From assembly GCA_023802575.1 (NCBI GenBank), contig GCA_023802575.1_3947.1: a DNA stretch of 64,000 nucleotides. One strand, given 5' to 3'. Below, one piece after another: positions 21,451 to 40,110 of the stretch. The stretch is from a phage. The notes below the pieces were generated by a model. The model was not told the origin of the DNA. It saw nothing but the letters and a program-made list of their open reading frames with translations, and did no database searches. Each line of letters starts with the position of its first letter. Position 1 is the first letter of the stretch. Both the position numbers and the translations under genes were made by a program.

Positions 21451-21783
21451 TCAAGAGAAATTTTTTCGTTTGTTCAGTTCTTGGACAATTACAGTGTAAT
21501 AGTCTTTTAAGTCACTGATATTTAAAGCATTTATCAGAGAGTTATAATCATCGACTAATTGAAAATCATCTTTGAAAATGTCACTGATTTGATAAGTTCT
21601 TGCCCTGAATCTGAAACTCATCTCTAACCGTTTTAATTGTTCATCACTTAAACGCTCTAGAAAGCTCATTACAAGACTATTACTAACCTGTTGTGTGATT
21701 GCCTTACTTGCCAGATTATAGGCGCTATAAGCCTTATAGAGCGCCAGAATAGCGATGATTGCAGTTATGGCCATCATTAACAT
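21451..21783 (-). CDS. hypothetical membrane-anchored protein (110 aa)
   Basis: N-terminal hydrophobic helix; six-frame ORF. Confidence 0.5.
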   Translation of the reverse strand: MLMMAITAIIAILALYKAYSAYNLASKAITQQVSNSLVMSFLERLSDEQLKRLEMSFRFRARTYQISDIFKDDFQLVDDYNSLINALNISDLKDYYTVIVQELNKRKNFS

Positions 21784-22073
21784 GGTGCTTCCTCTTTACG
21801 TGACACTTTGCCATTTACAGTTATCTCATAAGAATCTAGTAAATCGCTTTTAGCTTTGACAGGACTTTTAAGAGTATCATCATAGATATTAACTTGCAAT
21901 ACAGGTTTTTTATACCCCATGCAACTATTCCATAAGCAAATCACTACACGACGACCTTTTATTTTACCGTGTAACCATTCCATAACATCATGGCTGTTTC
22001 TTGATGTTTCAATGAAATCAATTTTGTTGAGTAACTTGCTTAGATTTTCACGAACTTTATTTGATAATTTCAT
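21777..22073 (-). CDS. hypothetical protein (98 aa)
   Basis: six-frame ORF; 7-nt overlap with downstream gene. Confidence 0.5.
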   Translation of the reverse strand: MKLSNKVRENLSKLLNKIDFIETSRNSHDVMEWLHGKIKGRRVVICLWNSCMGYKKPVLQVNIYDDTLKSPVKAKSDLLDSYEITVNGKVSRKEEAPC

Positions 22074-22088
22074 TTTTGAATCTCCAGT

Positions 22089-22301
22089 TTAGGATAAAAT
22101 AGTAATCGTAAAATTGTAATGACCATTAAGCTGATAAGCATAACAGTTAGAGAATACACCAACTAACCGAGGTTTTCCATAAATTTTCATGCGCTCTTTA
22201 ATCTCTTTGAGAGATTTCAAACCTGTAAGGTCTTTATTGAAATAGTCATCATCTGTGAACAGGACTTGTGAGGCGGTTTTCAGTTTTTGATTAATGTTCA
22301 T
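22089..22301 (-). CDS. hypothetical protein (70 aa)
   Basis: six-frame ORF. Confidence 0.45.
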   Translation of the reverse strand: MNINQKLKTASQVLFTDDDYFNKDLTGLKSLKEIKERMKIYGKPRLVGVFSNCYAYQLNGHYNFTITILS

Positions 22302-22389
22302 TTTTGAATCTCCAGTTTAGGATTTAGTGGTAAAGCTCTTTATCTGGGGCTTAAGGTATCAGCTTTTAAGCCCCCTGTAAAGTACTTTA
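22302..22389 (-). promoter_or_regulatory. conserved intergenic cassette type A
   Basis: sequence match. Confidence 0.6.
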
Positions 22390-22647
22390 TCAGATTAAAT
22401 TGCCAGTTAATGATAAGTGCATTTTATAGCCTTTTTTGGTAAAGACGTTCACTTTACCGAGTGATTTTACACCTTTAAAAAGGTTGTTTGAACTGCGTTT
22501 TAAGGTTAGTTGTTTATCAACCTTCACGCCCCACCTTACAGCAGATTGTTTTCCGTTGTCAACCACTTTCCCGCATAACTTTTTAGCCATGATACGAGCG
22601 TCATCACGAGTTTTTACAGTAATTACAACGTTTTTGATAATAGCCAT
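22390..22647 (-). CDS. hypothetical protein (~85 aa)
   Basis: ORF 22390..22662 with start moved to ATG at 22647 (cassette SD spacing). Confidence 0.45.
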   Translation of the reverse strand: MAIIKNVVITVKTRDDARIMAKKLCGKVVDNGKQSAVRWGVKVDKQLTLKRSSNNLFKGVKSLGKVNVFTKKGYKMHLSLTGNLI

Positions 22648-22733
22648 TTTTAAGTTCTCCAATTTAGGATTTAGTGGTAAAGTTCTTTATCTGGGGCTTA
22701 CTTTATCGGACTATAAGCCCCTTGTAAAGTACT
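22648..22733 (-). promoter_or_regulatory. conserved intergenic cassette type A
   Basis: sequence match. Confidence 0.6.
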
Positions 22734-23117
22734 TTATTTGTTAATTTTGAAGATAGTTACGTAACCATCACTACCGATTATTTGAGACGCTCCAGCTTTT
22801 TCTACTTGATAGCCCATATTTTCAAGATGATAAATAGCATCATCGTAACCGTATGCGCCACCCTGATAACGTCTCTTGTCACATCTTATCAGGTTTTTTC
22901 CACGTCCTGCAAGTGCATGGAGAATGGATTTTTCACTTGAAAGAGTACCATCTAGCATTGTAGCTGTGTAATGGTTGATTTTATTCCCGTTGATATCGTA
23001 CTTGAAATTAAATGAGTGAACAACAATAACGTTACCTTTAAAATTCTCATCAAGTGACTTCTCCAGTGCGTTGCGAAAGTTGTCTTTGTTCACGAATTTA
23101 GGTGCACGGTATGCCAT
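22734..23117 (-). CDS. hypothetical protein (127 aa)
   Basis: six-frame ORF; cassette type B upstream. Confidence 0.55.
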   Translation of the reverse strand: MAYRAPKFVNKDNFRNALEKSLDENFKGNVIVVHSFNFKYDINGNKINHYTATMLDGTLSSEKSILHALAGRGKNLIRCDKRRYQGGAYGYDDAIYHLENMGYQVEKAGASQIIGSDGYVTIFKINK

Positions 23118-23185
23118 TTTTGAATCTCCAGTTTAGGACTTTGTTTAGTGGGGAAGGTCATTCCCTCCCCGTTGATGCAAATACT
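23118..23185 (-). promoter_or_regulatory. conserved intergenic cassette type B
   Basis: sequence match. Confidence 0.55.
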
Positions 23186-23330
23186 AGATAACCACGTTCA
23201 AAGAGTCAAGAAAAATTTTAAAAATATTTTTGGCAAAACTGTAATGAAACGGGCGCACACGACTACCACAAAACAGAACACAAATCAAGAATTATTTTTC
23301 AATCCGCTACAAATTTTTCTCTTGACTTTT

Positions 23331-23365
23331 GGGGAGAGGGGGAGTAAGAGGGGGAGAGGGGTTGG
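23331..23365. repeat. purine-rich GA tract (GGGGAGAGGGGGAGTAAGAGGGGGAGAGGGG)
   Basis: low-complexity G/A run in intergenic region. Confidence 0.6.
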
Positions 23366-23385
23366 TCTGGCTGTTTATAAAAACC

Positions 23386-23566
23386 TACCTGCACAATTCT
23401 AAAATGATTTTTCTTGCCCGACCTGAGCGGGGTCTGCACGTTTTGAAAATGAAAAAGCTCTTTGGAGATTACCTGCACAGTTTGAAAATGAATTTTCCCT
23501 TTGGAGTTCAAAATTCTCTCCACAGATTTCTGTCCAGACTTTTACCTGCACAATTCTGAAATGAAA
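23386..23566. repeat. three direct repeats of ~21 bp ACCTGCACA(A/G)TT(C/T)(T/G)(A/G)AAATGA
   Basis: copies at ~23386, ~23470 and ~23546 in ORF-free region upstream (minus sense) of the small-gene cluster. Confidence 0.6.
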
Positions 23567-23637
23567 AAGCCCCCCTTACCTGAAAAATTTACCAGATAAG
23601 AAAGGCTTAGTCTATTGTGTATATTCTACACAGTTTC

Positions 23638-24423
23638 TTAGTTCTTTGCGTCTAAGAAGGTAACTTCTGGTGATGAGAAGATTGCCTTAACATTCTCATC
23701 AGTTCTCGCATAAATGTAAGCATCTGCATCACTACCGAATGTCACAGCAATACGATTATTGCTCTTTGACAGGCGGGTAACTAGAGCGTTACTTAGAGAC
23801 ATCTTTTCAACCGGAGGGTTACTTTGATGTATCTTACCCTTTCTACGTCTGAAGAGGGTAACTGCATTATCTGTGAACACTGCTATACCTGCAAAATATT
23901 CTGGTTCACAATAGTTCTTCCAACCTGAGCGTAACTTGTGGTACATCTCACCTTCATAGACATATAAGTAAACGTCTACGCTTTTCATTACCTGATTGAT
24001 GATAACGGTGACAGCTTGATGGTCAAGTCCACCGATACCTGCACCAATCATAGGTAAACCAACTTTCTTCAACTGATTAACTTCGCAGTACCTGTTAAGT
24101 TTCTTCAAAGATGACTCTAAAGCACTGTATCTGGCATCTTTACCAGTTTTAAGCTGAGTGTAGAGGTTAGCTATACGGCCTTGTTCTAAACGTGCTACAG
24201 AGATATTACCTAGTAAATCCTCACAGGGTTTATGTCCAATGCCACCTGCGTACAAGTAAACTTCTGTGTCAGTTTCATAGGCTTTTGGGTAAAGTTTAGA
24301 AATCTTGTCAGCAATACCTGCACCCATTAAGTTCATACAGTTGCAACCGTGTCCAATGACATCAAACTTGCCTTTATCAAAAGCATTAAAGATATCACCA
24401 TTGATGATTTTTACAATACCCAT
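23638..24423 (-). CDS. macrodomain protein, TARG1/OARD1-like ADP-ribose processing fold, with ~100-aa C-terminal extension (261 aa)
   Basis: GDIF...GHGCNCMNLMGAGIA and LPMIGAGIGGLD match the TARG1 motifs GDLF...AHCISEDCRMGAGIA and MPRIGCGLDRL. Confidence 0.75.
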   Translation of the reverse strand: MGIVKIINGDIFNAFDKGKFDVIGHGCNCMNLMGAGIADKISKLYPKAYETDTEVYLYAGGIGHKPCEDLLGNISVARLEQGRIANLYTQLKTGKDARYSALESSLKKLNRYCEVNQLKKVGLPMIGAGIGGLDHQAVTVIINQVMKSVDVYLYVYEGEMYHKLRSGWKNYCEPEYFAGIAVFTDNAVTLFRRRKGKIHQSNPPVEKMSLSNALVTRLSKSNNRIAVTFGSDADAYIYARTDENVKAIFSSPEVTFLDAKN

Positions 24424-24424
24424 C

Positions 24425-24625
24425 TTAACATCTCTCCCAAGATTCTTTGTCTTCAGAAGGTTTTACACGTTGCCCTTCATGGTCTACCCAGATGCACCCA
24501 CAACCTTCACAGATTACTGGCATTGCATAACCAGCTTTAAAGTCATCTTCAGTGATAAGACCTTTTAAGTCACCTGTATCACGTCCGAACATTTCAATAG
24601 AACAGTCTTTGCAGAAGTCAGCCAT
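24425..24625 (-). CDS. small zinc-ribbon-like protein (66 aa)
   Basis: CKDC...CEGCGC cysteine pairs. Confidence 0.45.
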   Translation of the reverse strand: MADFCKDCSIEMFGRDTGDLKGLITEDDFKAGYAMPVICEGCGCIWVDHEGQRVKPSEDKESWERC

Positions 24626-28986: not shown

Positions 28987-31353
28987 TTAATCGTAAATTG
29001 TTGTACCTTCTGGAACACACTTCACATCAAAGCCTAAGAACTTACTCACTTCAATAGGTGACACTTTATTCCAATCTAAATGAGAAAGCAAGAAGTTTTC
29101 TTGTTTTCTTTTTGAAAGGTAGTTTGTCACCTTAATGACCATGCGGTCACCAGCTTTCTTAATTTTCTTGTACAGCTTTGTATCATTGTCAAGGCATTCT
29201 TTCAAAGTTTGCAATCTACTAACAGTGTAAGTGTATGCAAACGGTGCAGCAACGTATTGGATTTTACCGAACATTGCCTCTACAGCCTCTTCATTACCTT
29301 CTAGGAAGATAGTTTTGTTTGTATCCCGTGAATAGCAATAACCACGAGAAATCTTCCTATTATTGAATGTAAAGTTTCTGGCAATAATCCAGCTACTTGT
29401 AAGGTCAAGAACACCATTCATGTAGATGCGTGTCATATACCTGTTATGATTAATCCAATGAACATCAGTTAAGCTGTCGTTCAAGAGCTTCTCATCTACT
29501 TCAATCCAGTCTTCTGGTATCTTTTTCCAATTTGCTTTTCGGAAAACATAAACTGTCTTTCCAATAACATTAGCAACTGACTTAGCTACATCTTCTGGAG
29601 ATGAGCAAAAACATCTACCATCAACTGTGTCACCAACTGCCTTAATATAAAGCTGAGGTTCTTCAATTGTGTCTAAGTCTTCTGACACCTCTTTGTATGA
29701 AGCTACAGATTCTGCTGGAACAGCTTTCCATAGTTTTACAACACCTCTCACAGCCTCTTTACGCTGATAATGATGCTCCTTATCAGACATTTTCACAATC
29801 TTTAACAAGCTTTTATCAAGTTTGTGTAGATTGATTAAATCATCTAACTCTTTTTCAGTCGAGAATACAAACACAATACCATTGTATCTGTGGAACAGGC
29901 CTGACTCGTTAGCGTAGTCTCGACATGCACCACGCAAGATTTGATTTCGTCCTACAGTCTTCTCAGTGCCATTTTTATTGCGACGGTCATTAATCACGAA
30001 CAAAAACTGTTCAATTTGGCTTTTACGCATTGCACCAAAGATATTGAACATACTTGCCTCTTGAGTGTAGGAAAGTGCTGTTGCACGAATCTTACTCTCT
30101 AAAGAGTTGAACTTGACATAAGCAACTGGGTCATAAAGGTAATCTACTTTAGGGATGTTGTTTCCGTTCCTATCAACCTTAATATTACCTTTACCGTCAC
30201 GCTCATAAATGACTGAGCCGTCTTCTGCGTAGATAATCCCGCGACGAATGTTTAGCAACTCTTCTTCCAGAGAATCAAGCTTAACGCCTCCCCACTCTAG
30301 CTTTGGACACACAGCATTAAACATTTCTCGTGAGTTCAAACGCAACTCAGCATAAGCCTGTGCAGCATCCATGAGTGTGGGCTGATTGTTAATCTTTTTG
30401 ATAACATCCTTTGTAATGGCTTCAGTTATCTTTTTAGTAGCCTCAATGATAACATTTTTTGTCGTGTCATTCATCTGCAATGCTTCACGAGAAGCTGCAA
30501 TAGCAACTGAACCAATAGGCATGTAGATGTTTACAAGGTCTACGCTCCTACGGAAAAACTCTGGCAATACTTTGAAGAAATCATCGCCAAGTAATGCTTC
30601 CATATTAACAGGGTAGGCAATGTTACCCATCACCACATTAAACTCTGTCCTGTTATCACTAGAACGCCAGCTGTGCTTATGAATCATGGCATCATAAACA
30701 CCTTCTTCACGGGCAATGACGTTCATATCTGCTAATACATCGTTGTACTCAATATTACTTTCTGGTTTTACAGTGAAGTATGAGTACACATTCCCAGCTT
30801 CTTCAAAGAACTTTGAGATACGGTGGTCAGCAACTGCCACACGTACAGCTAAACCATTAGGTTCTTTTGTTGGGTTAGTTGTCAGCTTAGTTACTTGAGG
30901 GATACCATTCTCAAGATAAACAGAGTACTTATTAACAACACCGTCAACATAACTAGATACTGTGAATGACTGAGCAATTGCAAATGGTGACTTTGAGCCG
31001 ATACCCATTGCACCAATGTAGTCATTAGAGTCGTTCTTCGTAGAAGCTCCATAGTTTAGGTACAGACTCATAACTTTATCATGAGTCAATCCAGTTCCAA
31101 AATCACGAACTTCGAAGTAAGGCTCAAAACGAGTAGGTAAATGCACATGGAATGGGATGTTCTCTTTTCCAGCTTCTTTCTGAGCATCCACTGCGTTACA
31201 TGACAGTTCACGAATCACTGCCCTTTCTTTAAAGGTGTATACACCAGAACTCAAAAGGCTGAACATCTCAGGTGTCATTGTAATCTGTGCTTGAGACGTC
31301 TCTAAAGAAGTTGAACTCTTAATCACTTCTGCGTGGTCATTTACCATGCGCAT
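28987..31353 (-). CDS. rIIA: rIIA-like protein with N-terminal GHKL/HATPase-like domain (788 aa)
   Basis: N-terminal RELSCNAVDAQ...GxGxG (AMGIGSK) resembles histidine-kinase-like ATPase fold found in rIIA; size ~T4 rIIA. Confidence 0.55.
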   Translation of the reverse strand: MRMVNDHAEVIKSSTSLETSQAQITMTPEMFSLLSSGVYTFKERAVIRELSCNAVDAQKEAGKENIPFHVHLPTRFEPYFEVRDFGTGLTHDKVMSLYLNYGASTKNDSNDYIGAMGIGSKSPFAIAQSFTVSSYVDGVVNKYSVYLENGIPQVTKLTTNPTKEPNGLAVRVAVADHRISKFFEEAGNVYSYFTVKPESNIEYNDVLADMNVIAREEGVYDAMIHKHSWRSSDNRTEFNVVMGNIAYPVNMEALLGDDFFKVLPEFFRRSVDLVNIYMPIGSVAIAASREALQMNDTTKNVIIEATKKITEAITKDVIKKINNQPTLMDAAQAYAELRLNSREMFNAVCPKLEWGGVKLDSLEEELLNIRRGIIYAEDGSVIYERDGKGNIKVDRNGNNIPKVDYLYDPVAYVKFNSLESKIRATALSYTQEASMFNIFGAMRKSQIEQFLFVINDRRNKNGTEKTVGRNQILRGACRDYANESGLFHRYNGIVFVFSTEKELDDLINLHKLDKSLLKIVKMSDKEHHYQRKEAVRGVVKLWKAVPAESVASYKEVSEDLDTIEEPQLYIKAVGDTVDGRCFCSSPEDVAKSVANVIGKTVYVFRKANWKKIPEDWIEVDEKLLNDSLTDVHWINHNRYMTRIYMNGVLDLTSSWIIARNFTFNNRKISRGYCYSRDTNKTIFLEGNEEAVEAMFGKIQYVAAPFAYTYTVSRLQTLKECLDNDTKLYKKIKKAGDRMVIKVTNYLSKRKQENFLLSHLDWNKVSPIEVSKFLGFDVKCVPEGTTIYD

Positions 31354-31875: not shown

Positions 31876-31891
31876 AGTCTTCTCCAGAAAT

Positions 31892-31913
31892 TAAAAAGGC
31901 TCCCGTAGGAGCC
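31892..31913 (-). terminator. intrinsic terminator
   Basis: GGCTCC-CGTA-GGAGCC plus minus-sense U-tract, downstream of NAMPT-like gene. Confidence 0.65.
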
Positions 31914-31928
31914 TCTTATCATATACTT

Positions 31929-33710
31929 TTAAAGCTGCTTGTCAATATTATTTCGAATATCGCCAAGAGTTGTGTAGCCAAACTGCTCAGAGTCACTAAA
32001 GACTAAACGTAAAGCACAAGCTGGATGTTCAAGTGCATCTGCAAAGCTCTGGAATCCATAGCCATCTACAGCTTTCAATTTATCACCATCCCACATAGGC
32101 GCTACACCACCAAAGGCAGACTTCTTCACACCACTATCTGTTTTAGGGTCTTTTGCAAGCATAATCTCCTTACCACCAATGCTTGCAAGAGTTGCTTTGA
32201 CAGCAAATGCAAAGGTGTCACGAGTCATGTACTGGTAAGTGTAAGAGCCTACACCAAACACTACGTTAGAGCTTGCAAAACCCATTTCATACAAACGCTT
32301 CAATATTTCGTTTGCACGTTCCAACGTGATAGAGTCACCATAAATAAGTCCGATGTGCTCATCCAGTACTTTAAAACCTTTGGAGTTGATAGTCCCTCCG
32401 AAGATGTTATACAGGGTCTTAATAGCTCCATCAATCTCTGCTACAGGACGTGTTACAACGTTTGCAGAACCAACCATATAAGCATTCTTCAGCAGTACTG
32501 TATCAGCAACTTCAAAGTCTTCTCGGTCAACAACCATTTCGTAGCCTTCTGACAGTAGCCATCCAGCAATACCATAGTTGATGTTTTCAAGCTTCATGTT
32601 CAGAACAGATTTCAGCATTGTATCACTAGCTTCCAGCTTGCTAAGATGTTCATAATAAGCCTTCTTAGCACATTCTAAGTGGATTGCTTTATAACCTGTG
32701 ACAATATGCACAGGGTCTCCAGAGTCAGGACGAATTACCAGCTTGCCGTCACGTTCCATAATCTCTTTACGGAGTTCTGGCAGTATCACTGATACAGTTC
32801 TCCAGAAGTTATAAGTATCTGAAACAATACTTGCAATACCCGTTGGGTAAGTTTCTGTTAAGAAACGACGGAAGGTTTGTAACTCACCTTTAAAGCGTCT
32901 TTCTTCTTCAATCAATTCGTTACCACCTTCCCAAGCAATGTTTGCACACATTACAGAGTGCTCAGTGGCTGGTACAGAGCTACCAATATCAGAGACTGGG
33001 TAAGACTGTCCGTAGATGCGTTTAGCTGTATATACGGCAGGGAAGCTATCAGTTCCTTTAAAGCTGGTCAAGTGGCCTACAGCATTAAATGCGTCATCAG
33101 TAAAGCCGGACATACCACGCATAGCAAAGTCATGGCACTGATAAGGCAAATGCAAGTCGTTATCACAAGTAAGGTCAGCCCACTTCTTACAGATACGTTT
33201 GTAGTGCAATGCAATAGTTGCAATGGTACAAGCCTTCCAAATCTCAGCAGAGAAAGCATCTTCCAGATAACCTGCTACCCAATGGAAACCTGAAACAGTG
33301 TTCTGGAAAACAATCATTGGGACACGCATAGGGACAACTGTGCCTTCTTCTACAGCGTATACTTCAACTGGTAGATAACCTAAGTCGTGAAGTGCTTCCC
33401 AATGCTCTCGACCGATAGCATCTTTACCAAGAACACCATTCATGACTTCTAAGATTTCGTCAATTGTTTCTTTTTTATCACGTTCAAAGAAAGTGGCATT
33501 CCAGTGGTCTATCAAGTAATCTTTAACAAAACGTTGAATACCAAAAGCCGCTACACCGTCAATTGCTAAAGGGCTGTTAAACCATTTATCACTACGTGGT
33601 GTCAGGTTGAACATCAAGTACTCTGTTGCGCTAGGATACTGGTAAACATGACCAGATTTGTAAGCATCTGCATTTAAACCTGCTGGTACTGCATAAAGTG
33701 ATTTAGTCAT
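31929..33710 (-). CDS. NAMPT-family phosphoribosyltransferase (593 aa): nicotinamide phosphoribosyltransferase NadV or NARP1 nicotinamide ADP-ribose transferase (Namat)
   Basis: N-terminal ADAYKSGHVYQYP matches NAMPT signature DSYK.TH..QYP; co-oriented directly downstream of Prs-like gene. Confidence 0.8.
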   Translation of the reverse strand: MTKSLYAVPAGLNADAYKSGHVYQYPSATEYLMFNLTPRSDKWFNSPLAIDGVAAFGIQRFVKDYLIDHWNATFFERDKKETIDEILEVMNGVLGKDAIGREHWEALHDLGYLPVEVYAVEEGTVVPMRVPMIVFQNTVSGFHWVAGYLEDAFSAEIWKACTIATIALHYKRICKKWADLTCDNDLHLPYQCHDFAMRGMSGFTDDAFNAVGHLTSFKGTDSFPAVYTAKRIYGQSYPVSDIGSSVPATEHSVMCANIAWEGGNELIEEERRFKGELQTFRRFLTETYPTGIASIVSDTYNFWRTVSVILPELRKEIMERDGKLVIRPDSGDPVHIVTGYKAIHLECAKKAYYEHLSKLEASDTMLKSVLNMKLENINYGIAGWLLSEGYEMVVDREDFEVADTVLLKNAYMVGSANVVTRPVAEIDGAIKTLYNIFGGTINSKGFKVLDEHIGLIYGDSITLERANEILKRLYEMGFASSNVVFGVGSYTYQYMTRDTFAFAVKATLASIGGKEIMLAKDPKTDSGVKKSAFGGVAPMWDGDKLKAVDGYGFQSFADALEHPACALRLVFSDSEQFGYTTLGDIRNNIDKQL

Positions 33711-33755
33711 CTTTTAATCTCTCTTAAAATGGGGCTTGGAAGCCCCTATAAAGTT

Positions 33756-34652
33756 TTAATCAAGGTTTGCTACAGTAACTTGGCTATAATGTGTTAAGCC
33801 ACGGTCTTTAGCTTCCCCTAAAGAGTTTGTAGTGTAGATATGGTCAATACCATTGTCAAGAAGGTTTTCAACATCTTTAGAGAAGATACCATGTGTTACA
33901 TAGAGTTCCACTCGTTTTGCACCTGCTTCACGAAGATGTTTAGCTGCTTCTATGAAGGTTCGTCCTCCATCACAAATATCATCCAGAATCATGACGGTTT
34001 TATCTGTCAAATCAACATCGTCAAGGATTCGCATACCAGTGATTTCACCAGTCTTGAGGTTGCGTACTTTAGACATTGTGATATATGGTTTATCCACCTC
34101 TTTAGCGGTTTCTGCAACCTTCTTAGCAGCACCTGCATCTGGGGCCACTAAGTAATCAACCAGTGGGTCATTTGCATAGTGGACTGCAATCTCCTTTTGA
34201 GGAATACTCTGGAAGCAGTTAAACAGGTTATCTGGAACGTAACTGTGAGGGTCAACTGCACAGACTGCACCAAACCCCATTGCATTAACCTGTTTAGCAA
34301 AAACCTTCAAAGCTGCTGCATCGCCTTTAAACATGTGACGGTCATATCGTGCATTTGGTAAGTAGTAAAAGATGACAGTCTTTAAAGCATAATCATGAGG
34401 AATTAAATCATCAATTGCTTCTTTAGCAAGTGCTACAGCAAACAATGTGTCTTTATCATAACCTTTTACAATCATAATCACATTGTTGATGGATGATGCA
34501 GCATAAGCAGTAAAATCAACAAACTCTGGTGAAAAGTGTCCACCAATCTCACCAGAAGGAAATTGGATGATGTTAAACTCTTCTTCATGAGTTCCTTTAG
34601 TTGGTGAATGAACTGTAACACGTATAGATGTTTTCATAATTTTCTCTCTCAA
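33756..34652 (-). CDS. ribose-phosphate pyrophosphokinase (Prs)-like protein (298 aa): PRPP synthetase or NARP1 ADP-ribose pyrophosphokinase (Adps)
   Basis: phosphoribosyl-pyrophosphate binding loop VMILDDICDGGRTF; immediately upstream of NAMPT-like gene. Confidence 0.8.
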   Translation of the reverse strand: MREKIMKTSIRVTVHSPTKGTHEEEFNIIQFPSGEIGGHFSPEFVDFTAYAASSINNVIMIVKGYDKDTLFAVALAKEAIDDLIPHDYALKTVIFYYLPNARYDRHMFKGDAAALKVFAKQVNAMGFGAVCAVDPHSYVPDNLFNCFQSIPQKEIAVHYANDPLVDYLVAPDAGAAKKVAETAKEVDKPYITMSKVRNLKTGEITGMRILDDVDLTDKTVMILDDICDGGRTFIEAAKHLREAGAKRVELYVTHGIFSKDVENLLDNGIDHIYTTNSLGEAKDRGLTHYSQVTVANLD

Positions 34653-34927
34653 TCAAAAGTTACGTTAGTTACTGCCATTGCAGACTTGCATTTCACAGGG
34701 TCTACAACGTGATAAAGTACACTACAGTTTCCTGTACTATCTGGCACAGGCTTTACCCATTGCTGTTTGACAGTTGGTTCTCCTAAGTCTTTGTAAGAAC
34801 CATCTGTATAATTATTTACCATCTCAAGTGCAATTGGCTCTGGGACATGACCACGTATCATGTACATTTCACAACCATTACCACCTTCACTGACTAATGA
34901 TAAAATCTCCCACTTTTCTTTAGCCAT
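34649..34927 (-). CDS. hypothetical protein (92 aa)
   Basis: six-frame ORF; ATGA coupling. Confidence 0.5.
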   Translation of the reverse strand: MAKEKWEILSLVSEGGNGCEMYMIRGHVPEPIALEMVNNYTDGSYKDLGEPTVKQQWVKPVPDSTGNCSVLYHVVDPVKCKSAMAVTNVTFD

Positions 34928-35435
34928 TGTAAGTTGCCCTATAAACTATCTCGAACTTCAACAGGAGAGATATTGCCAAATCTGTATAGTTGTTGTCAAG
35001 CACATCTGGCATATTATTTTTGATATATCTCTCTTGCTCTTCATAGGTCATCTTAGGGGTACTTAAAAGACTATCTCCTTGCTTCTGGTTATCAGCTTTA
35101 GTCTGAATAAACCAGTTTGTACAGTGATGTTCACCACCTTTTGTAACAGGTTTGTGGTGGCCTAATGTGAAGGATTGACTGCCTGTGTATCTGCAAAGTT
35201 TATTGAGTACTGTAATGGTGTTCTTCACAACAAAACATTCATACAGGTTGTCTATGGTGTAGTGTGGGGAATATCGAAATAATGCTCTTTCACGAGTACT
35301 CTCACGATTCCAGAGAATCATGTGATTGGAGTTGGAAGGGTCGTATTGGTGGGAGTCAATGAACTCTTGACGTTCCTCAAAACTGAGTCTTAACACTGAC
35401 ATTGCAGCAGAACGTTTCAGATTTGACAGATACAT
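34920..35435 (-). CDS. HNH endonuclease-like protein (171 aa)
   Basis: GHHKPVTKGGEHHCTNW resembles HNH core (HH..P...GG...N). Confidence 0.45.
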   Translation of the reverse strand: MYLSNLKRSAAMSVLRLSFEERQEFIDSHQYDPSNSNHMILWNRESTRERALFRYSPHYTIDNLYECFVVKNTITVLNKLCRYTGSQSFTLGHHKPVTKGGEHHCTNWFIQTKADNQKQGDSLLSTPKMTYEEQERYIKNNMPDVLDNNYTDLAISLLLKFEIVYRATYNG

Positions 35436-35446
35436 ATTATCTCCAA

Positions 35447-35473
35447 AATAAAAAGGGAACCTTTACAGTTCCC
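35447..35473 (-). terminator. intrinsic terminator
   Basis: GGGAAC-CTTTACA-GTTCCC plus minus-sense U-tract. Confidence 0.6.
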
Positions 35474-35486
35474 TTATAGTATCTGC

Positions 35487-37965: not shown

Positions 37966-40110
37966 TTACATAGAAACTCTGTCACGAATCTCAGCGATTT
38001 TTGCATCGTTCATTCGGGATTCACCTTTAATCTTAGTCCATCCAAGATACCCACACACCCTGTTAATCACAGAGATATCATGTGAGTGACAAACTTCACA
38101 CTCTTCAACATCTGATTTTGGTCTGTTACCACAATGCTCACAGATTGCTAAGTCAAAGTTAAGTCCCTGATAGAAACCTTTCAACATCCCTCTTGTAATA
38201 CAGCTCTTAAGTGCTGATAAGTTTTCTGGGTTAGCTACTCTTACATACTGGATTCTACCGCCTCTACAGATATGGAAGAATGGTTCTTCTAAGTCCTGCT
38301 TCTCAAATGGTGAGATGTCTGCTGCAACATTCATATGGAAACTGTTTGTAAAGTATTCCTTGTCAGAAACGCCTTTGATAACGCCAAACATATCTCTGAA
38401 CTGTTTTAGTTGAGTTCCGCAAAGTGATTCTGCTGGAGTACCATAGACGGCATATAAGAAGCCATCTTCATTTTTAAACTCTTCGGTTTTCATGTTAATG
38501 TATGCCAGAACATCATATGCAAAACTATAGCTTCCAACTTCATGCAGTCGTTTACCTTCAGCAAGAACAGACAACTCATCAAGCGCAGTAACACCAAAAG
38601 AAGCTGTGAAGGACTTCACAATATCCCAACCAACCTTGTCAGTAGGTTTCTTAGTTCCTTTGTACAGACCACCTTGTGTGAATGCAAGAGGGTTAGAGCT
38701 TGCTGGCATATTAGCAATCATTTCGTAGCGTTTCTTATGGAAACTACGAATCATCTCTAGGTACTTATCAAGCTCTTTCCAGAAATCTAAGCCATTCTCT
38801 TTAGAATACTGGTAAATCATTGGTAAGTTCAAAGATACAGCACCAATGTTAGCACGACCAACGTAGAACTCTTCTCCACCCTCATTAAGATATGGAGATA
38901 AAAAGGCTCTGCAACCCATCGGTGAAATTACCTTACCAGAACGCTCAAAAGCCTCTGCTACAGCACCATGACCAGACACACTTAAGAAATCTGGGTACAT
39001 TGCTTTAGAGCAACACTCAATAGCTTTACTGTACAGGTGACCTTGACAGATATTTTCATCATGTCTCTTCTGGTCATAAATATAAACCAGTTTAGGGAAT
39101 ACAACAGGTTTTTTGCTCTTGCCTTGTCCATTCATACGAACATCTAGGAGAGTACTTGCAATCATGTATTGTAGTCGATTATCCTCATTAGACATATCTG
39201 AGTCAAGTAAACCAAATGTTAAAGTTGTGAATGCAAAATCACCACGGCTACAAGGTACGGTATTTAGTTTCATCTCAAGTGACTGAAAACCTTGAGTCAG
39301 TTCAATTTGTAACTGCTCCATTACATAATTGTGGTAATGCTCTTTAGGAATACCATAAGATGATGCTTTCTCAGCATGATAGCGTAGAGACTTCTTAGCA
39401 TACGGTACAAGTACCTTATCAATCTCTGCTAAAGTAAAACCACCAAATTGCTGTGCAGTTGCTGAAAGTACTACGTCACCAATAACCTGCAACGCTGACA
39501 GTACAGATTTAGGTTCACAGTACTCAATGCCGGACATTTCAAAGCCGCCTTTTAGTACTTTACCAATGTCAAACAGGCAACAGTTAATACCACCAAAAAT
39601 CAGGTCTCTCAAATCGTGGATATAGATAAAGCCTTTCTCAATGGCTTCAAGTTCCTCTGGTGTTAGATGATACTGTTTAAAGATTTCTTTAGTCAGGTAA
39701 CCACGGATAATTGAACCTTTCGTAGAAATTAAACTGCTGTCAAAGTTAGCATTTTCACGGTCACCTAAGAAGAGTGTGTCTCTAGTCTTTTGGTAAAGTT
39801 CATCCCAATTTTGAGCAACCTCTTTACGGTAATTTCTGTATGTTGAGTAAGACTCATAAATCTCGTGATTGACCTCTGCCAAAGCACCTTCAACAATACT
39901 GTGAATATCGTTTACCGAAATTAGTAAATTATTCTGTTTAGTAGATTTTACCAGAATCCTCATAAATGCTGACTCAAGAGCTTGAGTAACATCTGGTGGG
40001 AGTTCTTTATACCCAACCCTATTAGCTGACTTTGTGACTGCTGCTAAAACTTTTTTGATATCAGGTTCTTCGAGTGAGCCATTCTTTTTAATAATCTGTA
40101 CTTTGTTCAT
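37966..40110 (-). CDS. nrdD: anaerobic ribonucleoside-triphosphate reductase (class III)
   Basis: 714 aa; C-terminal zinc ribbon CEHCG...CEVCH and glycyl-radical motif RVCGYLG. Confidence 0.9.
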   Translation of the reverse strand: MNKVQIIKKNGSLEEPDIKKVLAAVTKSANRVGYKELPPDVTQALESAFMRILVKSTKQNNLLISVNDIHSIVEGALAEVNHEIYESYSTYRNYRKEVAQNWDELYQKTRDTLFLGDRENANFDSSLISTKGSIIRGYLTKEIFKQYHLTPEELEAIEKGFIYIHDLRDLIFGGINCCLFDIGKVLKGGFEMSGIEYCEPKSVLSALQVIGDVVLSATAQQFGGFTLAEIDKVLVPYAKKSLRYHAEKASSYGIPKEHYHNYVMEQLQIELTQGFQSLEMKLNTVPCSRGDFAFTTLTFGLLDSDMSNEDNRLQYMIASTLLDVRMNGQGKSKKPVVFPKLVYIYDQKRHDENICQGHLYSKAIECCSKAMYPDFLSVSGHGAVAEAFERSGKVISPMGCRAFLSPYLNEGGEEFYVGRANIGAVSLNLPMIYQYSKENGLDFWKELDKYLEMIRSFHKKRYEMIANMPASSNPLAFTQGGLYKGTKKPTDKVGWDIVKSFTASFGVTALDELSVLAEGKRLHEVGSYSFAYDVLAYINMKTEEFKNEDGFLYAVYGTPAESLCGTQLKQFRDMFGVIKGVSDKEYFTNSFHMNVAADISPFEKQDLEEPFFHICRGGRIQYVRVANPENLSALKSCITRGMLKGFYQGLNFDLAICEHCGNRPKSDVEECEVCHSHDISVINRVCGYLGWTKIKGESRMNDAKIAEIRDRVSM

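Follow-up and report, generated by a model that had tools for sequence, protein, structure and literature searches.

A gene pair within a 64,000-nucleotide stretch of phage DNA (NCBI GenBank assembly GCA_023802575.1, contig GCA_023802575.1_3947.1; hereafter the window) appears, at a probability that we put at roughly 0.93, to be a Felixounavirus counter-defence operon for NAD+ reconstitution pathway 1 (NARP1), with genes 79-80 of phage Bas63 as its orthologues. The open reading frame (ORF) listing and the raw sequence place its two members side by side and co-oriented on the minus strand, at 31929..33710 (593 amino acids) and 33756..34652 (298 amino acids when counted from a TTG codon), as a first-pass annotation made from the sequence letters had reported. 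The former encodes a nicotinamide phosphoribosyltransferase-like (Nampt-like) protein and the latter a ribose-phosphate pyrophosphokinase-like (Prs-like) protein, here called Namat and Adps. Deletion of genes 79-80 in the Felixounavirus Bas63 (JohannRWettstein, MZ501086) led to the discovery of NARP1 (bioRxiv 10.1101/2024.02.11.579819); the pair in the window is orthologous to that defining operon and hence already known.

In the scheme that we propose, a host NADase defence would break NAD+ down into ADP-ribose (ADPR) plus nicotinamide, the effectors in view being SIR2, TIR or SEFIR proteins such as those of SIR2-HerA/Nezha, type I Thoeris or DSR1/2. Adps would then pyrophosphorylate ADPR at its free ribose, using ATP, to form ADP-ribose pyrophosphate (ADPR-PP), and Namat would displace the pyrophosphate of ADPR-PP with nicotinamide to yield NAD+ directly, a regeneration that would let phage replication go on.

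Orthology to the NARP1 operon of Bas63

A megablast search of 50,697 phage records returned 258 that match the gene pair, 221 of them covering at least 80% of it; nearly all come from Felix O1/wV8-type phages of Escherichia, Salmonella, Shigella or Citrobacter, with a best identity of 95.8%. The 24-kb stretch surrounding the pair is ~93% identical to known Felixounaviruses, and by these matches the window is itself a Felixounavirus. Namat is identical to Bas63 gp80 (bas63_0080) at 580 of 593 positions (98%) and Adps to Bas63 gp79 (bas63_0079) at 229 of 293 (78%), and the window and Bas63 have a common gene order, NrdD ... NrdG ... 0077, 0078, Adps, Namat ... rIIA. The NARP1 reading put forward in the first-pass annotation is thus supported by genus, protein identity and gene order together.

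Identity to Bas63 is unevenly spread along Adps, reaching 95% in the C-terminal 113 residues and 68% in the N-terminal 180. The window carries the common allele: phage KEP1 encodes an Adps that matches it residue for residue (100% identity), about 120 records encode one with at least 95% identity, and wV8 Adps differs from it at only three residues (~99% identity; differences counted by reading). The wV8 protein is included in the Adps homolog table of the NARP1 paper, and the Namat table of that paper marks the wV8 and Bas63 proteins as 'Adps-associated' (bioRxiv 10.1101/2024.02.11.579819).

Both genes are under purifying selection, the ratio of non-synonymous to synonymous divergence (dN/dS) lying within 0.04-0.17 overall, at 0.04 for Namat and 0.06-0.16 for Adps. 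Compared with Bas63, the N-terminal 180 codons of adps (34098..34637) show a synonymous divergence (dS) of 1.39 with a dN/dS of 0.16, whereas dS in Namat is 0.26, and the phage records fall into two Adps allele groups, at 60-80% and at least 90% identity. On these values we rejected positive (arms-race) selection as the source of the divergent N-terminus. Such deep synonymous divergence argues for allele replacement by recombination and not for fast adaptive change, and indicates that the gene is a recombination mosaic whose N-terminal half is an old, imported allele.

Namat carries the adenine selectivity clamp

In profile searches, the Nampt-like protein matches NCBIfam PRK09198 (8e-140), Pfam NAPRTase (1.7e-34) and phrog_448 (8e-201), and the Prs-like protein matches TIGR01251 (3.9e-36) and phrog_619 (9e-97) and contains Pribosyltran and Pribosyl_synth domains; both family assignments are far beyond chance. 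The N-terminal peptide that had been singled out as NAMPT-like, ADAYKSGHVYQYP, is present at Namat residues 14-26.

An adenine 'selectivity clamp' has been defined for Namat from structures of the SpbetaL1 enzyme (2026), with a clamp-helix signature of GSX-phi-X-phi-X-phi-TRD that has aromatics at positions 3 and 7 (PMC12774641). Residues 488-498 of the window protein read GSYTYQYMTRD and so conform to it. Position 3 is aromatic in 27 of 27 aligned homologs, and position 7 is Tyr or Phe in 23 and Met in the other 4; the same region of genuine Nampts is without the signature (GAQTYQRNTRD in H. ducreyi NadV, GGALLQKVDRD in Xcc (Xanthomonas) Nampt). In the clamp loop, the published rule places Arg, Lys or Tyr at the third residue, the fourth residue stacking if the third is Lys or Tyr, and Bas63 Namat serves as the Lys-type example (PMC12774641). 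The window has S40-D41-K42-W43 at this place, identical to Bas63 Namat.

The Nampt-like core is present as well, comprising the nicotinamide-stacking Phe/Tyr, the Asp, the catalytic His and the Arg-x-Asp ribose contacts. SpbetaL1 residues D13, Y15, F189, R192, D215, R306 and D308 map to D15, Y17, F195, R198, D221, R327 and D329, respectively, H251 lies in an ATEHS motif that the window protein keeps, and the mapped core residues are invariant across the 27 homologs. All nicotinamide, ribose-phosphate and adenine/AMP contacts of the SpbetaL1 Namat-NAD+ crystal are identical or conservative in the window, with F392 replaced by Y490, A362 by S460 and S190 by A196.

Among solved structures, Namat scores 431 bits by phmmer against the Namat crystals 9W5W/9W5X, 352 against H. 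ducreyi NadV (HdNadV), 177 against Xcc Nampt and 143 against human NAMPT; sequence E-values in the PDB are 4.6e-128 for 9W5W/9W5X, 3.8e-51 for Xcc Nampt and ~1e-40 for human NAMPT. An AlphaFold2 model (predicted local distance difference test, 92.1; predicted template-modelling score, 0.90) retrieved 9W5X/9W5W at the top of a Foldseek search (E 3e-54, template-modelling (TM) score 0.96 over the target), ahead of H. ducreyi NadV (1e-47) and mammalian NAMPT (2e-39). By sequence and by structure alike, solved Namat is therefore a closer match to the window protein than solved Nampt. PDB entries 9KE8/9KEO, considered as further Namat structures, were rejected, being H. ducreyi NadV and without the clamp aromatics. 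Motif conservation, together with the in vivo data on Bas63 described below, suggests that the window enzyme prefers ADPR-PP over phosphoribosyl pyrophosphate (PRPP) and makes NAD+ directly.

A Nampt-family second gene would also fit a NARP2-type pathway like that of Vibrio phage KVP40, in which Nampt and a phage Nmnat (NadM/NatV) assemble NAD+ out of PRPP, nicotinamide and ATP. That arrangement is effectively refuted here by a partner gene that is of the Prs family and no adenylyltransferase, by a clamp motif of Namat type, by the 'Adps-associated' label given to the Bas63 and wV8 proteins in the NARP1 paper and by the syntenic 45 kb of Bas63, within which no Nmnat is annotated.

Namat further contains an 88-residue insertion (residues 340-427) that neither SpbetaL1 Namat nor Nampt enzymes have and that, once folded, gave no match to known folds. 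Conserved and autonomously folding, it might have a regulatory or partner-binding role peculiar to the Ounavirinae enzymes, an idea that we grade jointly with the split pathway considered below and regard as improbable.

Beyond phages, the window Namat shares 45-48% identity with chromosomal proteins of ~496 amino acids annotated as 'nicotinate phosphoribosyltransferase' (Klebsiella, Cronobacter, Erwinia, Kluyvera). Three of these were aligned (P0069, P0070 and P0098), and they have a Namat-type clamp helix, GS[YF]TYQYNTRD, in agreement with a published report of bacterial NARP1 homologs.

Adps departs from cellular Prs

The Prs-like gene almost certainly starts at the ATG at 34637 (MKTSIRV..., 293 amino acids) and not at the TTG at 34652, because the TTG shares bases with the stop codon that ends an upstream 92-residue ORF and because this ATG is the start used both by the Bas63 annotation and by the wV8 protein in the table of the NARP1 paper. 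The ATG is preceded by GAGAGAG, a Shine-Dalgarno-like sequence. Of the interval first given for this gene, 33756..34652, the ORF stands and the start is to be moved. Numbered from the ATG, the PRPP-binding-loop peptide quoted at that stage, VMILDDICDGGRTF, occupies Adps residues 215-228.

The only Prs model that Adps passes is the generic subfamily model TIGR01251 (124.5 bits against a cut-off of 113). It reaches none of the NCBIfam Prs equivalog thresholds, scoring 43.9-104.8 bits against cut-offs of 296-536; even the best family-specific models, at 104.8, 92 and 85.2 bits (for example, 92 against a cut-off of 297), leave it short by a factor of ~3 or more. By blastp, the protein matches SpbetaL1 Adps at 2e-29 (100 bits) and E. 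coli Prs at 1e-15 (62 bits).

The protein nonetheless has the Prs-family fold with its catalytic flexible-loop lysine (K162 in SpbetaL1, K197 in B. subtilis Prs): K190-V-R192 aligns to K162-Q-R164 of SpbetaL1 Adps and to K194 of E. coli Prs. In SpbetaL1 Adps, K162 is essential and the K162A mutant inactive (bioRxiv 10.1101/2024.02.11.579819). Also retained are FPSGE, RYDR, H131 and DD219-220, which belong to the ATP/ribose motifs of Prs. The ribose-phosphate loop, D223-G-G-R-T227, is not that of canonical Prs (D-T-G-G-T in E. coli).

These comparisons, together with the identity to Bas63 and wV8 Adps, place the window protein in the phage Adps clade, apart from cellular Prs. Within that clade, 97% of members are encoded adjacent to a Namat gene (bioRxiv 10.1101/2024.02.11.579819), and here a co-oriented namat follows adps after 45 nucleotides (nt). 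From the in vitro data on SpbetaL1 and the in vivo data on Bas63, Adps would be expected to pyrophosphorylate ADPR using ATP without making PRPP.

The first-pass annotation had named profile and structure comparison as a check on its reading, and the outcome favours NARP1, with the Namat crystals as best match for one protein and, for the other, missed Prs equivalog cut-offs and a preference for SpbetaL1 Adps. It had also cautioned that sequence alone would not distinguish NARP1 from canonical Prs plus NAMPT; this went too far, as orthology, the clamp motif, the structure ranking and the missed Prs thresholds all discriminate between the two.

Functional evidence and alternative explanations

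Bas63 lacking genes 79-80 plates ~20-fold lower on SIR2-HerA cells and shows deeper NAD+ depletion, the rescue by the intact phage being independent of host pncC and nadR, and deletion of NARP1 sensitises phage FADO to DSR2 (bioRxiv 10.1101/2024.02.11.579819). ADPR-PP (m/z 720.010) and a cyclic-phosphate breakdown product were seen only with wild-type Bas63 plus a defence system. Purified SpbetaL1 Adps converts ADPR and ATP to ADPR-PP (bioRxiv 10.1101/2024.02.11.579819). The same enzyme gave no product in a Prs-activity control, for which the preprint text and the figure legend differ on the name of the substrate. SpbetaL1 Namat turns ADPR-PP and nicotinamide into NAD+ and prefers ADPR-PP over PRPP. 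By the Bas63 and FADO deletion phenotypes, the pair probably has an anti-defence role in the window phage, and we infer that its alleles, especially the wV8-type N-terminal half of Adps, have the same activities as the characterised homologs.

The annotation history of these genes tells of another pathway. Records of relatives name ribose-phosphate pyrophosphokinase and nicotinamide phosphoribosyltransferase/nadV, just as the first-pass annotation had recounted, and the Pfam, NCBIfam and PHROG names likewise say Prs and NAMPT. Under such canonical salvage, the Prs homolog would make PRPP from ribose-5-phosphate, the NAMPT homolog would join PRPP and nicotinamide into nicotinamide mononucleotide (NMN), and host NadR/PncC routes would finish the synthesis; the Prs catalytic motifs kept in Adps and the ability of Namat homologs to make NMN from PRPP in vitro agree with this. 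We nevertheless consider it very unlikely, as Bas63 rescue needs neither pncC nor nadR and ADPR-PP accumulates in vivo, SpbetaL1 Adps yielded nothing in the PRPP-forming control, SpbetaL1 Namat produced only NAD+ when offered both substrates, the window Namat has an adenine-clamp motif missing from genuine Nampts, and Adps stays at 43.9-104.8 bits where the Prs family models demand 296-536.

Less likely still is a general booster that would raise PRPP and pyridine nucleotides for phage DNA synthesis whether or not a defence is active, a role that the location of the operon among nrd genes and its co-directionality with metabolic genes (NrdA/B, NrdD/G, deoxynucleoside monophosphate kinase and DHFR-type) might suggest. 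In the literature, ADPR-PP forms only under active NADase defence and NARP1 gives no surplus NAD+ without NAD+ cleavage. The Bas63 deletion phage, moreover, propagated and plated on the defence-free control cells that served as comparator for its ~20-fold defect on SIR2-HerA, and NAD+ and PRPP pools were reported equal for wild type and deletion in defence-free hosts.

Several points weigh against the NARP1 assignment itself. The N-terminal 180 residues of Adps, at 68% identity and dS 1.39, diverge enough from those of Bas63 that the allele deleted there is not exactly the allele present here. The in vitro chemistry comes from SpbetaL1 homologs and none from Felixounavirus enzymes (Bas63 Adps did not purify), and the SpbetaL1 proteins are only ~32-36% (Adps) and 43-47% (Namat) identical to those of the window. 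Namat homologs retain PRPP-to-NMN activity in vitro (PMC12774641), which makes some canonical side activity possible, and the window Namat has an 88-residue insertion without counterpart in the characterised SpbetaL1 enzyme.

Locus organization and transcription

The features of the locus are listed in Table 1.

Table 1 Features of the putative NARP1 locus, in window coordinates
Feature	Position	Strand	Note
adps, putative ADP-ribose pyrophosphate (ADPR-PP) synthetase; Prs family; 293 aa	33756..34637	-	NARP1 gene 1
namat, putative nicotinamide ADP-ribose transferase; Nampt family; 593 aa	31929..33710	-	NARP1 gene 2
G+C hairpin within adps-namat spacer	33731..33746	-	sequence reading and fold
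88-aa insertion subdomain in namat, residues 340-427, lineage-specific	32430..32693	-	
Intrinsic-terminator-like hairpin with T-run, directly 3' of namat stop codon	31894..31917	-	terminator scan

The 45-nt spacer between adps and namat (33711..33755) contains the hairpin quoted in the first-pass annotation, GGGGCTTGGAAGCCCC, at 33731..33746. Read as RNA, it is GGGGCU-UCCA-AGCCCC followed by AUUUU, a 6-bp G+C stem with a 4-nt loop and a fold energy of -13.6 kcal/mol (z -2.5); the stem is kept in Bas63 and the loop differs. We rejected a full intrinsic terminator at this position, the T-run being only 4 nt long and the element not being called by a simple terminator scan. It may instead be a weak attenuator or an RNA-stabilising element that modulates relative expression or RNA stability. 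The hairpin behind namat has a 10-bp stem with 5 G-C pairs and a T tail in the terminator scan, folds at -17.6 kcal/mol (z -3.2) and is identical in sequence in Bas63; with its T-run, it is likely the 3' end of the transcription unit.

Directly upstream of adps, on the minus strand at 34649..35435, lie two conserved ORFs of 171 residues (phrog_3500, with a weak HNH-like match) and 92 residues (phrog_4726). They overlap by 8 nt, the 92-residue ORF stops 11 nt ahead of the adps ATG, and a terminator-like hairpin is found just upstream of both, at 35453..35475 (minus strand). Given this overlap, the short gap and the hairpin, the two ORFs, adps and namat may form one transcription unit.

The adps-namat spacer of many Felixounaviruses is filled by a free-standing HNH homing endonuclease gene (~490 nt) that displaces the hairpin, as in Escherichia phage pinkbiff (2097-2588 of the compared sequence); the window spacer, 33711..33755, is the empty, uninterrupted form. 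Some relatives, for example Salmonella phage ST11, have Namat annotated as two pieces beside a homing endonuclease. Elsewhere in the window, nrdD is one continuous ORF of 714 residues at 37966..40110, and Bas63 nrdD is annotated as two joined pieces split by a homing-endonuclease gene (21631-24517 of the Bas63 sequence used).

Accessory genes and a distal Macro protein

An extended form, NARP1-AP, adds a Macro-domain ADPR-1''-phosphate phosphatase (Adpp) and occurs in 15% of NARP1 phages; the NARP1-AP table contains no Felixounavirus (bioRxiv 10.64898/2026.01.28.702374). For mycobacteriophage DyoEdafos, a RyR-domain cyclic ADPR (cADPR) glycosidase, RyDEP, embedded in the NARP1 locus has been described. 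NARP1-AP is recognized by a Macro-domain phosphatase gene in the NARP1 operon or at most two genes away. In the four ORFs next to the pair (171, 92, 111 and 58 residues), scans against Pfam and PHROG found no Macro (Adpp) domain, and Pfam gave no RyR-domain hit. We therefore rejected both the NARP1-AP and the RyDEP forms; with flanks free of Macro and RyR genes, the system in the window is a minimal two-gene NARP1.

The only Macro ORF in the window encodes 261 residues on the minus strand at 23638..24423, ~7.5 kb from NARP1. It is the orthologue of bas63_0095, a 'putative phosphatase', and was matched by two published Adpp queries in a tblastn search of the whole window (E 3e-12 and 4e-16). 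Its identity to NARP1-embedded Adpp is 27-35% by tblastn and 31-39% in an alignment, and it has the motifs HxxNC, GxG[IV]A and PxIGxGxxGxD in common with Adpp. The N-terminal part gives an above-threshold Pfam Macro match (3.1e-7), the protein falls in phrog_335 ('phosphatase') and its nearest solved relatives are TARG1/OARD1; the C-terminal extension of ~100 residues had no Pfam match. The family spans 2,782 phage records, including T-even-type genomes, where it is annotated tk.4, and is thus not specific to NARP1, for which reason we did not count the ORF as part of the system.

One might still imagine a 'split' extended pathway in which this Tk.4-like Macro protein acts in trans as an Adpp. 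We hold this, jointly with the proposed function of the Namat insertion, to be doubtful. If true, it would feed ADPR to Adps and Namat and so widen protection to aRES-type defences, and a criterion limited to two genes on either side would have missed such an arrangement.

Significance

The pathway was published in 2024, with a structural follow-up in 2026, and the window comes from its type lineage; as a discovery, the pair has small weight. Its value lies in annotation: about 250 records of Felixounavirus type still carry 'ribose-phosphate pyrophosphokinase' and 'nicotinamide phosphoribosyltransferase', labels that conceal a counter-defence module relevant to the choice of therapy phages against hosts with Thoeris, SIR2-HerA, DSR or similar systems. 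NARP1 can be called from sequence alone by combining three criteria: a clamp helix of Namat type, a neighbouring Adps gene and missed Prs equivalog thresholds.

Comparison with known systems

The closest counterpart is the NARP1 of Bas63, which belongs to the same genus, lies between NrdG and rIIA, has a 45-nt spacer with a hairpin and a terminator, and encodes a Namat with the 88-residue insertion and both clamp elements. It is unlike the window in the N-terminal 180 residues of Adps, which are another allele, the window carrying the older wV8/KEP1 type, and in an additional small gene past the Namat terminator, bas63_0081. This gene of 114 residues sits between the terminator and the next conserved ORF (30509-30853 of the Bas63 sequence used) and is without counterpart in window positions 31876..31928.

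The SpbetaL1 system resembles that of the window in its order of adps then namat and in the catalytic lysine of Adps (K162, here K190), and SpbetaL1 Namat (9W5W, 9W5X) in all ligand contacts, in the clamp-helix motif and in the predicted fold (TM 0.96). It differs in a Namat without the 88-residue and 15-residue insertions, in a clamp loop that stacks R40 directly where the window uses K42-W43, and in an Adps ribose-phosphate loop that reads SFGGT as opposed to DGGRT.

Canonical Prs and Nampt enzymes (E. coli Prs, HdNadV 9KE8, human NAMPT, KVP40 NadV) have the folds, the phosphoribosyl-transfer chemistry and the catalytic-core residues in common with the pair. However, E. coli Prs (b1207) is only 25-29% identical to the window Adps, which misses the Prs equivalog cut-offs, and canonical Nampts have Gln/Arg or Gly/Leu where the Namat clamp helix has its aromatic adenine-stacking residues. 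Finally, the NARP1-AP of Vibrio phage Gary (Adps, Macro-domain Adpp, Namat) has the same two core enzymes (bioRxiv 10.64898/2026.01.28.702374) but holds its Macro gene inside the operon, whereas the only Macro gene of the window stands ~7.5 kb away.

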